Source: Candidatus Hydrogenedentota bacterium
GTDB taxonomy: Bacteria > Hydrogenedentota > Hydrogenedentia > Hydrogenedentales > SLHB01
Direction of reading: 5' to 3'
NCBI GenBank assembly: GCA_963668025.2
Contig: CAXXTH010000017.1
Location: forward strand, 1,408,001 to 1,472,000
Length of the DNA: 64,000 nucleotides
Shown: piece after piece, positions 10,521 to 14,017 of the stretch
Layout of the letters: the number at the start of each line of letters is the position of its first letter
How positions within the stretch are numbered: position 1 is the first letter of the stretch
Made by a program: the position numbers and the translations under genes
The notes under the pieces: generated by a model
Told to the model about the DNA's origin: nothing
The model's database searches: none
Seen by the model: only the letters and a program-made list of their open reading frames with translations

Positions 10521-11003
10521 TTATTTAGGTTCAGCAGGCGACGGTGGAACAGGTTCTGCGGGATATTTGATTTCCACTTGGCATGGGGTTTCCAGCGGCG
10601 CATCTCCTTGTTCCGTGGAGACAATCACGACGCTGCCTTGTTCATTATATGCGGAGATCAAAAACGTAAATTGGCCGGAAGGGGCGTTGAGGGGAACATC
10701 GAGCATGCTGGATGTCCAGATGCCATCGCCGCTTTTCGCATCGGGAGCCTCGCCATTGTCGTAGAGGTGGATAATCACCCGGTTTTCAGGTTCTTGAGCG
10801 GTTTGTTCGCCTTTGACTTCCGCCTGCACGTTCTTGATGATCCCGTATTTGTCAGAGACCTTGACGGAAATAACCGCGCTGTCGCCGGGAGCAAGGACGG
10901 CGGGTTGAACTCCGGCTTGATCAAGACGGGGCTGGCGTCCAAGCGTATTGCAGCCAGCTAACGCCAGTGTTGCGATGAGCGCCAGATACATCGAGGTTTT
11001 CAT
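10521..11003 (-). CDS. Lipoprotein with a choice-of-anchor-X-like (LYDNG..D..GDGIW) Ig-fold domain
   Basis: Lipobox LALAGC and motif LYDNGEAPDAKSGDGIWT. Confidence 0.7.
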   Translation of the reverse strand: MKTSMYLALIATLALAGCNTLGRQPRLDQAGVQPAVLAPGDSAVISVKVSDKYGIIKNVQAEVKGEQTAQEPENRVIIHLYDNGEAPDAKSGDGIWTSSMLDVPLNAPSGQFTFLISAYNEQGSVVIVSTEQGDAPLETPCQVEIKYPAEPVPPSPAEPK

Positions 11004-11237
11004 GCTGCATTCTCCAGGCGCCGTACGCGGCGCCGTATACCAGTCATTCCATTGACGCGGGCTTCACCCGCATGCCATGCTGTTTCGCGGATTCGCGGAT
11101 ATTGGCTTTCCACGGAAATCCATGGCAAGCAGACTACCCCAGCCCATGCGAAGCTGTCAAACGCGCATGCCCTGCTCTGTGTATAACGGAATGGATAACG
11201 CGCAGGGGGACAGCCCGGGGCGATTGGCAGAGGATAC

Positions 11238-12032
11238 ATGACGCAACGATTTCTGGCGCGGCTGCGCTACGAGGGAACTCATTTCTCGGGCTGGCAAGTG
11301 CAGCCGCATCTTCGCACGGTGCAAGGCGTAATCGAAGAAGCCCTGTCCCGGATGGCCGGGGAGCATATACGGGTGCAAGGCGCTTCACGTACGGATGCGG
11401 GCGTTCATGCCTTTGGGCAAACGTGCGTGTTTGATTGGAAAAAAGAGCAGGACGGCGGGCGGCTTCAGCATTCCCTCTCGGGCATGCTAGGCCCCGAGAT
11501 TCGCGTGGACGCCATCGAACCGGTTGTGGCGGATTTTGATCCAAGGCGCTGGGCCATAGGCAAACACTATGCCTATACGCTGCATCTAGGGCGGGAAGCG
11601 GATCCGTTTGCCGTCCGGTATGCCTGGCCCATTCGATGGAAGCTGGATATGGGGCGGCTCGCGGATTACGCCCAGCTTTTGGTGGGCGAGCATGATTTCG
11701 CGGGATTCGAGAGCTCCGGTTCTGCTAGCGGCTCCACTATTCGAACCATTCATGGCATAGCCGTGCGGCCCGGGGCGGTTATAGGGTCGTGTGACGCCGT
11801 GAATTGCTGGCGCATGGAATTTCACGGGAGCGGCTTCTTGTATCACATGGTGCGCAATATCGTGGGGACGCTCGTGGATGTGGCGCGCGGCCATAAGCAG
11901 GTGGACTGGATTGCCGAACGGCTACATGCCCCCGGGCCTTTCCGGGGCCGCACGGCCCCTGCTCAAGGCCTGGTCCTCATGCGCGTGTTTTATGAACACG
12001 CCGAATACGCCAAGGCGCACCAGAGGATATGA
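11238..12032 (+). CDS. truA: tRNA pseudouridine(38-40) synthase TruA
   Basis: Motifs YEGTHFSGWQVQ, SRTDAGVHA, GFLYHMVRNIVG and TAPAQGL. Confidence 0.95.
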   Translation: MTQRFLARLRYEGTHFSGWQVQPHLRTVQGVIEEALSRMAGEHIRVQGASRTDAGVHAFGQTCVFDWKKEQDGGRLQHSLSGMLGPEIRVDAIEPVVADFDPRRWAIGKHYAYTLHLGREADPFAVRYAWPIRWKLDMGRLADYAQLLVGEHDFAGFESSGSASGSTIRTIHGIAVRPGAVIGSCDAVNCWRMEFHGSGFLYHMVRNIVGTLVDVARGHKQVDWIAERLHAPGPFRGRTAPAQGLVLMRVFYEHAEYAKAHQRI

Positions 12033-12245
12033 AAAGGAAATGCGCCGTGGGGGCAACCACAGCGCACTCACAGAGGGTTTCGGCCTTGCGGATACCTTTC
12101 AGCTCGGGACTTGATATGGCGTCCGAAAGACCGTTTGTTTCGACATCCGTGTCACGTAATCCTCGACTTCCCTGTCTTGGATGAATCTTGATTGGACTTC
12201 CTTGTCCTTTTTTCCGGCCTTGGCCTCCTTGCCTCGGCCGTTATG
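12032..12245 (-). ncRNA. Candidate sigma28-dependent sRNA 1 with four CsrA/RsmA-type GGA hairpins
   Basis: Minus-strand hairpins GGCAAGGAGGCC, GGACAAGGAAGUCC, GACAGGGAAGUC and GACACGGAUGUC. Terminator stem 12041-12066 plus U-rich tail. Promoter at 12252-12278. Confidence 0.7.
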
Positions 12246-12251
12246 CAATAT

Positions 12252-12278
12252 ATATCGGCGCGTTTGGCGAGAACTTTA
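12252..12278 (-). promoter_or_regulatory. sigma28 (FliA/SigD)-type promoter
   Basis: TAAAGTTC-11 nt-GCCGATAT on the minus strand. Consensus is TAAAGTTT-N11-GCCGATAA. Confidence 0.8.
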
Positions 12279-12312
12279 GTTGGGGCGCATTCGGTTACAT
12301 CAATAGTGCGCT

Positions 12313-12437
12313 AAAAAAATAAGAGCGCCACACATGGGGACTGTGGCGCACTCAAGAAGGGTGGAACTTGGGACATCGAGACTGGTCCGGGGGACAACCT
12401 TTCCGGCCTCTTTGTTGTTTCCCATTCAACTTTGTTA
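12313..12437 (-). ncRNA. Candidate sigma28-dependent sRNA 2 (GUCCC-rich, weaker GGA sites)
   Basis: Same 3' block UGAGUGCGCCACA-loop-UGUGGCGC plus U-tract (stem 12325-12349). Three GUCCC motifs. Promoter at 12444-12470. Confidence 0.65.
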
Positions 12438-12443
12438 CTTCTT

Positions 12444-12470
12444 ATATCGGCCTTTTGCGGGAAAACTTTA
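12444..12470 (-). promoter_or_regulatory. sigma28 (FliA/SigD)-type promoter
   Basis: TAAAGTTT-11 nt-GCCGATAT on the minus strand. Confidence 0.82.
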
Positions 12471-12572
12471 GCCAAAATATAAAGGAAATTTATATAAACA
12501 AAATGGCATATTCTGGGACTATTTTGGCTTTATTAATGTTACAGAATGATGATACAACACATATTTAGCACT

Positions 12573-12744
12573 AATAAAGGAAAGCGCCACAATTGGGCAT
12601 TGTGGCGCACTCATGGAGGTATAGCTTAGGGACCTTGTATTCGCCTCGGCGTTGGGACGGCGCCTGGGCTGTGGGACGGTTCCGTTAGCGTAATTTCGAC
12701 TTCCGTGTCTCGGGGGGCTTCGACTTCCTTGTCTTAGCCTTGCA
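12573..12744 (-). ncRNA. Candidate sigma28-dependent sRNA 3 (GGA hairpins plus GUCCC motifs)
   Basis: Hairpins GACAAGGAAGUC (12722-12733) and GACACGGAAGUC (12698-12709), plus AACGGAAC and three GUCCC motifs. Terminator stem 12584-12608 plus U-rich tail. Confidence 0.7.
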
Positions 12745-12750
12745 CTGTAT

Positions 12751-12777
12751 ATATCGGCGGCAATGAACGAAACTTGA
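12751..12777 (-). promoter_or_regulatory. sigma28 (FliA/SigD)-type promoter
   Basis: TCAAGTTT-11 nt-GCCGATAT on the minus strand. Confidence 0.78.
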
Positions 12778-12839
12778 GCCCGAATGTAAATGGGCGTGAT
12801 GTGGATTGAATAATAAAACTTATGTGATATTTATGTGTT

Positions 12840-13865
12840 TTAATCAAACAGATGGCCTTGCGCATTTGGTGGAGGCGCCAGGCCGAAGTGGCGGTAGCCA
12901 AGGGGAGTGGCGACGCGCCCCTGCGGGGTGCGCTTGAGGAAGCCTAACTGTATTAGAAAAGGCTCATGGACCTCCTCGATGGTTTGGGCGTCTTCGCCGA
13001 TGCTGACAGCGAGGGAAGACAGGCCAACAGGCCCGCCGCTGAATTTATGGATGACGGTTTCGATGATATGGCGGTCCATGTCGTCGAGGCCCAGCGCGTC
13101 GATGCGCAGAAGGTTAAGCGCGGCATCGGCGATTTCCTGCGTGATGACGCCATCGCCCTTTACTTCGGCAAAGTCGCGCACGCGGCGGAGCAGGCGGTTG
13201 GCGACGCGGGCGGTTCCCCTGGAGCGTCCCGCCAATTCAAGCGCGCCGGTGTCTTCAATGGGCACATTGAGGATGCGGGCGGAGCGTTTGACGATCTGCT
13301 CAAGCTCGGCGGGAGAGTAGAATTCAAAGCGGCAGGTGTCGCCGAAGCGCGCCCGCAGCGGTGGCGTAAGGAGGCCCGAACGGGTGGTGGCCCCGATCAG
13401 GGTGAATCGCTTGAGGCCGATTTTCATCGAGCGCGCCGTGGGGCCCTTCCCGAGCATGATATCGACCTCAAAATCCTCCATGGCGGAATAGAGGGTTTCC
13501 TCGACCGCATGGTTAAGGCGGTGGATCTCGTCGATGAACAGGAAGTCGAACTCATCCAGGCTGGTCAGAATAGCGCTGAGGTCCGCCTGGCGCTCGATGA
13601 CGGGCCCGGAGGTGGATTTAATGTCCACTCCCATCTCATTGGCGAGAATGCGGGCGAGGGTGGTCTTGCCGAGTCCTGGCGGGCCAGAAAGCAGCAGATG
13701 GTCAAGAGGCTCGCGCCGGTTCTTAGCGGCTTCGATGGCGATGTGGAGTTTTTCCTTGATGGGCTCCTGCCCAGGGAAATCCTCGAGGCGCTGCGGGCGT
13801 ATGCGGTCGTCAAACTGCGAGTCCTCGCTAATGGGCGCGCCGCTGAGCAAGTCATTGTTAGCCAT
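12840..13865 (-). CDS. ruvB: Holliday junction branch migration helicase RuvB
   Basis: Motifs [11 protein letters not shown], Walker [27 protein letters not shown] and RTPQGR. Start at MANNDLL. Confidence 0.97.
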
Positions 13866-14017
13866 GGGGTGTTGTGTTTCCTTATGCCAGGTAAAACCAA
13901 TTAGGCGCGAAGGCGCACTTCGCATCTGCATTATGGAAGACAGCGCGCCCGGACGCAAGCAGTTGGCCAGCGGGGGAAATAGAATGGAAATGCCGCTCTT
14001 CATCTCGCGGAAGAATC

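Follow-up and report, generated by a model that had tools for sequence, protein, structure and literature searches.

The 64,000-nucleotide (nt) window analysed here, positions 1,408,001 to 1,472,000 of contig CAXXTH010000017.1 from a Candidatus Hydrogenedentota bacterium, carries on its minus strand (12030-12777) an array of three units, located between the stop of truA (11238-12032, plus strand) and the stop of ruvB (12840, minus strand). Reading of the sequence gives a promoter, a body and a terminator for each unit, with unit lengths of 120-210 nt before the terminator end, and all three share the unit end UGAGUGCGC-stem-loop-GCGC followed by a U-rich tail. Unit 1 contains two full copies of a two-hairpin module, unit 3 contains one and unit 2 contains none. 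The original prediction, made from the sequence alone, had described the three minus-strand promoter-to-terminator units with their N11 sigma28-type promoters and had proposed a paralogous family of CsrA sponge RNAs induced by the flagellar sigma factor; its statements about the sequence all hold, coordinates included. The features are listed below from unit 3 to unit 1, and the scores refer to two covariance models, R1 for the full-length RNA and R2 for the 5' module alone.

12751..12777, minus strand: unit 3 sigma28-type promoter TCAAGTTT-N11-GCCGATAT, strict motif match
~12744, minus strand: probable unit 3 transcription start, placed by the usual sigma28 spacing
12690..12743, minus strand: unit 3 5' module, putative flagellin leader decoy (R2 60 bits, pair counts, frame and spacing)
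12739-12716, minus strand: unit 3 hairpin P1, GGCU-AA-GAC-AAGGAA-GUC-GA-AGCC
12709-12698, minus strand: unit 3 hairpin P2, GAC-ACGGAA-GUC
~12676-12673 and 12631-12628, minus strand: further UCCC motifs of unit 3
12645..12667, minus strand: unit 3 hairpin P3, loop with GUCCCA (hairpin count and fold)
12605..12620, minus strand: unit 3 anti-ribosome-binding-site element ACCUCCAUGAGUGCGC (sequence, family alignment)
12575..12608, minus strand: unit 3 intrinsic terminator and U-rich tail (terminator scan 12608-12584)
12444..12470, minus strand: unit 2 sigma28-type promoter TAAAGTTT-N11-GCCGATAT, strict motif match
~12437, minus strand: probable unit 2 transcription start
12384..12408, minus strand: unit 2 hairpin P3, GUCCCCC loop (sequence, fold)
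12373-12368, minus strand: unit 2 second UCCC site, single-stranded GUCCCA
12347..12364, minus strand: unit 2 anti-ribosome-binding-site element CCACCCUUCUUGAGUGCG (pairing with two flagellin sites)
12312..12349, minus strand: unit 2 terminator and U tail (sequence, R1)
12252..12278, minus strand: unit 1 sigma28-type promoter TAAAGTTC-N11-GCCGATAT, strict motif match
~12245, minus strand: probable unit 1 transcription start
12187..12243, minus strand: unit 1 first putative decoy module (R2 44.8 bits)
12239-12216, minus strand: hairpin GGCC-GA-GGC-AAGGAG-GCC-AA-GGCC of the first module
12207-12194, minus strand: hairpin GGAC-AAGGAA-GUCC of the first module
12134..12186, minus strand: unit 1 second putative decoy module (R2 48 bits, R1 alignment)
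12181-12160, minus strand: hairpin UCC-AA-GAC-AGGGAA-GUC-GA-GGA of the second module
12153-12142, minus strand: hairpin GAC-ACGGAU-GUC of the second module
12064..12077, minus strand: unit 1 anti-ribosome-binding-site element CCCUCUGUGAGUGC (pairing with a flagellin site)
12030..12069, minus strand: terminator of unit 1 with its U-rich tail, adjoining the truA stop (12032, plus strand; terminator scan 12069-12038)

The simple terminator scan found the stem-loops of units 1 and 3 and missed that of unit 2 because the scan allows loops of up to 8 nt and this one has about 9.

The genome of the window itself (G000; 6,145,620 bases, 93.75% complete; positions are given as G000:contig:base) was scanned on both strands with the strict promoter motif T[AC]AAGTT[TC]-N11-GCCGATA[TA]. 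We detected four matches, three of them in the array, and the fourth serves a flagellin gene that has a ~650-nt leader. A looser motif was found upstream of a flagellin gene in the same genome and also precedes flgK-, fliD-, flgN- and flgM-like genes, these names being given only from the appearance of the N-terminal sequences. The fliA gene is present (251 bits, above the curated cut-off), and a simple scan for sigma70-like promoters found none in 11900-12900, where 1.1 were expected. The TAAAGTTT-N11-GCCGATAA-type promoter, the presence of fliA and the motif at late flagellar genes suggest that the array belongs to the FliA regulon.

The csrA and fliW genes were detected as well, with fliW overlapping the csrA start, and the genome accordingly holds all three genes that the original prediction had named. 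CsrA, encoded on G000:C17, has 71 amino acids and is of the FliW-partnered type, its best solved relatives being B. subtilis 1t3o and the Geobacillus CsrA-FliW complex 5dmb. The contrast drawn earlier between RNA sponges and FliW stands only in part: a candidate RNA antagonist of CsrA was found, but fliW is present too, so any such RNA would work beside FliW and not instead of it. No match to Hfq (PF17209) was found in this 93.75%-complete genome; ProQ/FinO was not searched for.

Two other loci with sigma28-type promoters contain GGA motifs. The long flagellin leader behind the fourth strict promoter (G000:C17:644342-645017) has 18 GGA in 476 nt, and it is followed by two further tandem flagellin genes, each with its own GGA hairpin and CUCA-N-GGAGG. 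At G000:C19:36367-36445 a sigma28-type promoter precedes a flgM-like gene (by N-terminal sequence), the ribosome-binding site of which lies in a GCC-AAGGAU-GGC hairpin and is possibly a further CsrA target.

The GGA hairpins of the array number six, four in unit 1 and two in unit 3, and unit 2 has none, as had been implied. They have 3-bp stems, A-N-GGA-N hexaloops and ACA and GU flanks, which is the CsrA consensus type. The CsrA site obtained by in vitro selection (SELEX), RUACARGGAUGU, is described with invariant ACA and GGA, GU after them, a hexaloop and at most 4 base pairs (PMC7652899), and the ACA-N-GGA-N-GU architecture of the array hairpins agrees with it, as predicted. Since the hairpins fit the SELEX description, CsrA binding appears to be the best reading of the 5' module. 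Hairpins with a 3-bp stem and an A-N-GGA-N loop occur 172 times in the genome, and same-strand pairs of them at a distance of up to 70 nt occur six times, all inside units 1 and 3.

Aligning 27 units that bear hairpins (A1) gave a consensus of P1 (outer and inner stem), P2 and the terminator, from which R1 was built; both GGA triplets are invariant in 27/27 aligned units. In alignment A3, the source of R2, 93.7% of the cells were paired, compared with 12-45% when the partners were slid. R2 matched the genome only at 12690-12743 (unit 3) and at 12134-12186 and 12187-12243 (unit 1).

The 5' module resembles flagellin leaders of the phylum. The leaders of six genomes have a common layout, a GGA-loop hairpin followed after ~8-12 nt by (CA)CUCA-N-GGAGG over the Shine-Dalgarno sequence, and in one flagellin gene per genome, which has its own sigma28 promoter, the first hairpin stands in a GCC-RA...GA-GGC frame identical to the P1 frame of the small RNA (sRNA). 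The second leader-like site of the sRNA module, CANGGAGG / CANGGANG, lies 21-26 nt downstream of the first; measured from GGA to GGA, this distance covers 21-26 nt in 27 sRNA modules, compared with 23-25 nt in the six leaders. R2 matched the sigma28-driven flagellin leaders in 6/6 genomes, in register and ending at the start codon, with 26.3, 25.4, 21.0, 14.8, 13.5 and 11.2 bits (92-kb search); in the genome of the window this leader lies at G000:C17:669651-669756. Judging by these features, we read the 5' module as a decoy of the leader behind the sigma28 promoter of flagellin, and its two leader-type sites are most likely occupied by one CsrA dimer per module. Units 1 and 3 share with the leaders the two GGA sites behind a sigma28 promoter, and the flagellin open reading frame (ORF) after the second site is absent. 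Separately, the flagellin 5' leader at G014:C8:351789-351902 (L171/L175) was weakly matched by the full-length R1 (24 bits), a first hint that the sRNA 5' end and the flagellin leader may be related.

Leaders of this kind are known from other bacteria. The C. jejuni flaA leader is sigma28-driven and has two GGA sites, the second at the Shine-Dalgarno sequence, being both target and titrator of the FliW-partnered CsrA (PMC4894983), and the B. subtilis hag leader has a two-site CsrA layout (PMC7652899). The stems and loops of the array RNAs fit the CANGGANG hexaloops of the flaA leader (PMC4894983). The array resembles both leaders in the two GGA sites behind a sigma28 promoter, its 5' module copying the equivalent leader of its own phylum; unlike them, the leader copy would be a separate non-coding transcript without start codon or ORF, in which a hairpin encloses the second site and which is joined to an element antisense to the genuine leader.

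The RNA was found across the phylum. BLAST detected pieces of the locus in 18/40 relatives, and a promoter-free pattern of two spaced GAC-A-V-GGA-N-GTC hairpins, scanned over one genome per prokaryotic species, detected at least 118 loci. Among the matches listed, 47 loci have a sigma28 promoter 14-20 nt upstream of the hairpins (31 Hydrogenedentota or equivalent, 12 uncultured Nitrospirales/Nitrospiraceae, 3 unlabelled and 1 Firmicutes bacterium UBA3943), and most of the remaining 71 are unrelated arrays or coding repeats rich in Asp/Thr. The non-proteobacterial lineage that had been suspected is consistent with the records carrying an equal RNA, which are titled Hydrogenedentota; relatives of the same family have units identical to those of such records. 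R1 scored 125 bits for unit 3, 78 for unit 1 and 33.2 for unit 2 (12318-12444, matched via the 3' module only) and had no other match in the window or the genome. Over 135 genomes of the phylum, R1 was positive in 100, with 1-5 copies each, and R2 in 98, so both the proposed paralogy of the three units and the proposed search of related genomes with a covariance model were borne out.

The csrA gene was found in 104 and fliA in 103 of these 135 genomes. The RNA and csrA occur together in 94 genomes, the RNA without csrA in 6 (all metagenome-assembled genomes), csrA without the RNA in 10 and neither in 25. Most members of family f11 are non-flagellate, and 2 of its 23 genomes have the RNA, exactly the two with fliA; the 100%-complete genome G007 lacks the RNA, csrA and fliA. 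Because the relatives are not independent and csrA travels with flagella, the distribution points to linkage with the flagellar/CsrA system and not with CsrA specifically.

Searched over 68 loci, R1 gave 103 matches, commonly two or three in tandem, with no GGA hairpin in 23, one in 1, two in 76 and three in 3. The sigma28 motif stands directly upstream of 97 of 99 distinct units, compared with 60 of 5000 random control windows; the two units without it are second modules of duplicated 5' ends, that of unit 1 included. In five further genomes all 15 model matches, which were found without promoter information, have the sigma28 motif.

Several other loci were noted in the pattern scan. Twelve third-party bins titled uncultured Nitrospirales/Nitrospiraceae carry the family RNA (L039, L043, L052, L057, L060 and seven more), and the RNA of L039 is nearly identical to that of Hydrogenedentota-titled records, which makes the Nitrospirales/Nitrospiraceae labels doubtful. 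The Firmicutes bacterium UBA3943 unit (L099:282-460, minus strand) has a sigma28-type promoter, then three hexaloop hairpins with GGA, a stretch of CCACCUCCUCU and a terminator, scoring 21.9 bits with R1 and 27.4 bits with R2; it is either a divergent member in a mislabelled bin or an equal design in another lineage. Acidobacteriota/Thermoanaerobaculia records (L078, L050, L061, L130, L149, L119) contain a non-coding-looking tandem GGUCGAC-A-N-GGA-N-GUCGACC hairpin followed by GCUACA, in many copies per locus and at several loci per genome, and these arrays represent either a repeat element or an RNA with multiple CsrA-type sites. Other GGA-loop hairpins in tandem, lacking a sigma28 promoter, were seen in L116, L128 (Cloacimonas), L150 (Planctomycetota) and L109, an example repeat being GGGUUGACAGGGAUGUCAACC every ~33 nt. 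In L103:1105-1300 (Sumerlaeia) the pattern match is the csrA gene itself, with a GGA hairpin at its ribosome-binding site and a second one formed by codons 4-8 (LTRKS), suggesting possible autoregulation.

It is very improbable that the units are relics left by duplication of flagellin promoters and leaders, that they act in cis as the leader of a gene downstream, or that they are genes for small proteins. The 5' module is homologous in layout to flagellin leaders and, according to the ORF listing, short ORFs overlap the array region mechanically, as this explanation would expect; but each unit has its own terminator, and unit 1 runs into the convergent truA stop, so that no downstream gene is served. 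Neither a start codon nor an ORF follows the hairpins of the units, and no Shine-Dalgarno sequence or conserved start was found there, the conserved C-rich block being anti-Shine-Dalgarno, and the family is kept in the 100 genomes given above. The small-ORF and leader-relic explanations were therefore rejected on the terminators, the family conservation and the missing start.

The part common to all units, with or without GGA hairpins, is a 3' module, which consists of the hairpin P3, a second single-stranded UCCC and the element (GUCUUA)CCUCC-N-UGAGUGC by the terminator. In a direct hairpin count, P3 shows UCCC in its loop in 72/99 units with 43 different stem pairs, compared with 4.85/99 after shuffling; RNAalifold did not recover P3 from MAFFT alignments. 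The CCUCC-N-UGAGUGC element is reverse-complementary to CACUCA-N-GGAGG(UAAGAC), the conserved initiation region of the flagellins, in which CACUCA-N-GGAGG is the predicted second CsrA site together with the Shine-Dalgarno sequence, and the UGAGUGCGC block is the 3' half of this element. The homologous end block noticed earlier thus does include a terminator, but it is also part of a conserved element antisense to flagellin ribosome-binding sites.

Contiguous pairing was ranked over 6191 candidate initiation regions of the genome, obtained by a crude ORF rule. The best partner of unit 1 is the flagellin at G000:C17:644342 (14 contiguous pairs, 2 of them G-U; rank 1/6191), and those of unit 2 are the flagellins at G000:C17:642204 and 643278 (15 and 14 contiguous pairs; ranks 1 and 2/6191). 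Duplex energy was compared for 18 units of six genomes with 1143 GGAGG-bearing control sites, the best of 2-6 flagellins being taken for each unit. Unit 2 paired better with its flagellin than with all 1143 GGAGG sites, and unit 1 was beaten by 27/1143 control sites. The best own-genome flagellin beat all controls in 5/18 units, was beaten by at most 3 in 9/18 and by at most 27 in 14/18 (top 2.4%). A noisy long-window RNAduplex ranking (35-nt seeds against all candidate sites) put a flagellin first for unit 2 only, and the complement of the family consensus (GGAGGTAAGAC and similar) had no exact match in the genome. Hairpin-less units pair best, 4/5 with long perfect matches of up to 19 pairs, and in hairpin-bearing units the flagellin match is often interrupted.

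The median predicted unpaired probability of the anti-ribosome-binding-site element is 0.45. Pairing of the 3' element with the unit's own second hairpin is possible; in the minimum-free-energy fold it appears in unit 1 and not in unit 3, and by eye the variable loop base and the matching element base do not co-vary. The own promoter, the terminator and the conserved element with extended complementarity would make the units candidate base-pairing sRNAs, here without the Hfq match that is expected of this class.

The 3' element is not explained by a pure sponge model. Under that model, which formed the original prediction, the RNAs only sequester CsrA under sigma28 control and the 3' block serves termination or stability. 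The GGA hexaloop hairpins are invariant across the family, the 5' module mimics the CsrA sites of the flagellin leader, unit 1 has multiple GGA hairpins, the RNA co-occurs with csrA, and the C. jejuni flaA leader provides a precedent for titration of CsrA (PMC4894983); the CsrA-site mimicry of units 1 and 3 stands. The rest of the proposal appears incomplete: most family members have just two sites (76/103 matches), which are leader copies, unit 2 and 23/103 matches have no hairpin and yet keep promoter and 3' module, and the 3' element is conserved beyond the needs of a terminator, with flagellin sites ranking first for units 1 and 2. We consider sequestration as the only function improbable.

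The opposite simplification, plain base-pairing sRNAs against flagellin mRNAs with 5' hairpins that are an inherited piece of leader, give 5' stability or have no CsrA role, appears still less probable. In its favour, no part other than the 3' module is shared by all units, the strongest pairing was found in hairpin-less units, and both E. coli and C. jejuni have base-pairing sRNAs that depend on sigma28 (PMC10578931, PMC11187230). However, the GGA loops, the ACA/GU flanks and the spacing are kept in 27/27 aligned units from many genera, and the 5' module was detected in 98/135 genomes. Such conservation would be difficult to account for if no sequence-specific ligand recognised the module, and the protein known to read this motif is CsrA.

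We suggest that the array encodes bipartite sRNAs which are driven by FliA, bind CsrA and also pair with flagellin mRNAs, and we assign this proposal a probability of roughly 0.58. The promoters, modules, conservation, mimicry and complementarity are present in the sequence, and from them we infer that the units are transcribed, bind CsrA and pair, and in which direction the net effect goes. When sigma28 is active, the three terminator-ended sRNAs would be transcribed by the FliA holoenzyme. The 5' decoy module would bind CsrA in competition with the flagellin mRNA leaders, and the 3' module would pair with the mRNAs of particular flagellin paralogues, most likely blocking ribosome access. Unit 2 would be an antisense-only type, unit 3 would carry one decoy and unit 1 two. 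In this way the array would couple late flagellar transcription to post-transcriptional control of 4-7 flagellin paralogues, alongside FliW.

Several results weigh against this proposal. Co-occurrence with csrA is inseparable from co-occurrence with flagella, and the 10 genomes with csrA but no RNA match also have fliA. Support from covariation is thin because the hairpin stems are almost invariant, the inner stems showing one both-sides change each, and the pattern that gathered many of the sequences demanded GAC/GTC stems. For unit 3, its own genome offers no perfect flagellin partner and no flagellin is among its best partners; its best flagellin duplex was beaten by 10/1143 control sites. 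Flagellin pairing was indistinguishable from background in 4/18 units, and contiguous pairing stood out in only 5/15 units of relatives. The element contains an anti-Shine-Dalgarno core, so part of the complementarity is generic, and CTCA-N-GGAGG occurs 91 times in the genome, often in repeats or coding DNA, and alone is no evidence.

RNA support for transcription is limited to contigs from two runs of one metatranscriptome study, which cover unit 2 alone (12361-12514 and 12312-12424) and are a weak hint at most. One of them runs upstream beyond the promoter; the other, with a foreign flank and 5 mismatches, hence derives from a relative. As these data are contigs and not reads, they give no start, end or strand, and the missing cover on units 1 and 3 is uninformative. 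Finally, titration of CsrA would be activating and occlusion of the ribosome-binding site repressing, so that the net direction is not decidable from the sequence; the candidates for the net logic are paralogue choice, a threshold or CsrA-assisted pairing.

A more elaborate alternative, a targeted CsrA exchanger, is possible though we think it doubtful. Here the 3' module would dock on the CsrA sites of the flagellin mRNA and the decoy would take over or deliver a CsrA dimer, so that CsrA and the sRNA would form a ternary switch or matchmaker choosing the translated paralogue. The UCCC loop would kiss the first-site loop, CCUCC-N-UGAGUG would pair with the second site and the Shine-Dalgarno sequence, and the hairpin-less units would be antagonistic plain repressors. 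If true, a single RNA would mimic an operator and be antisense to it as well, in a phylum that apparently lacks Hfq.

Some features lie outside the proposed bipartite sRNAs. Between the ruvB stop and the unit 3 promoter, ~60 AT-rich bases on the same strand (12778-12840) contain no terminator-like hairpin, and transcription of ruvB could possibly run on into the array. The mechanical ruvB ORF has 426 amino acids and begins ~98 codons ahead of the family match. At G000:C2:6556-7032 we noted an array resembling clustered regularly interspaced short palindromic repeats, with a 36-nt repeat, in which one repeat-spacer joint fits the loose sigma28 pattern.

In the textbook view, control of CsrA is split in two, with BarA-UvrY-driven sRNA sponges in Gammaproteobacteria and the FliW protein elsewhere. 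The bipartite sRNAs proposed here are like CsrB/CsrC and RsmX/Y/Z in being non-coding and terminator-ended, with GGA in short hairpin loops and often several paralogues. They are unlike them in lineage and size, in the sigma28-type promoter, where the known sponges have a sigma70 promoter activated by BarA-UvrY/GacS-GacA (a UvrY/GacA homologue was not searched for here), in usually having two sites per RNA, in the coexistence with fliW and in the extra antisense module. According to the review, fliW is anti-correlated with BarA-UvrY, which is required to transcribe the Csr sRNAs (PMC7652899). Rfam 15, searched over 11000-14000 with permissive filters, gave 0 matches at E up to 1, neither to CsrB, CsrC, RsmX/Y/Z or TwoAYGGAY nor to any other family, and the search likewise found no sequence relation to the known sigma28-dependent sRNAs; none or a weak match had been expected.

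McaS of E. coli is Hfq-dependent, and to our knowledge it is neither sigma28-driven nor a mimic of a CsrA target; the array differs from it in the lack of an Hfq match in its 93.75%-complete genome. McaS (and GadY) are base-pairing sRNAs that also bind CsrA, with GGA-mediated antagonism (PMC7652899), and the array RNAs would similarly combine base pairing and GGA-type CsrA sites in one molecule. The small RNAs UhpU, MotR, FliX and FlgO of E. coli and CJnc170/FlmR of C. jejuni, which are transcribed with late flagellar genes and tune flagellin level, filament length and motility, are sigma28-dependent and belong to the same regulon as proposed for the array (PMC10578931, PMC11187230). Unlike the array RNAs, the four E. 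coli sRNAs derive from untranslated regions, and in the abstracts of these two papers neither CsrA sites nor an element antisense to flagellin ribosome-binding sites are described for any of the set. In B. subtilis, CsrA promotes the pairing of SR1 with ahrC mRNA (PMC6546359), a precedent for a FliW-type CsrA as sRNA-mRNA pairing helper, and only by this analogy could CsrA have a helper role here; SR1, unlike the array family, is unrelated to flagella.

A full-text literature search (subscription journals and supplements were outside it) found no sigma28-driven CsrA-binding sRNA and nothing on CsrA in Hydrogenedentota, and its only match for the topic of a FliA-dependent CsrA-sponge sRNA was the C. 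jejuni flaA study. The array represents a new RNA family joining known principles in a new wiring. Among lineages with FliW outside the Proteobacteria, it would be the first candidate for an sRNA that binds CsrA, and its design links a stand-alone copy of the flagellin operator, controlled by the flagellar sigma factor, with an antisense of that operator. The decoy with the anti-ribosome-binding-site element would be a compact natural part for CsrA-based circuits. Taken together, the family provides a concrete testable design for the timing and choice of flagellin translation in cells with many paralogues and points to an undescribed RNA layer of flagellin control in this uncultured phylum.

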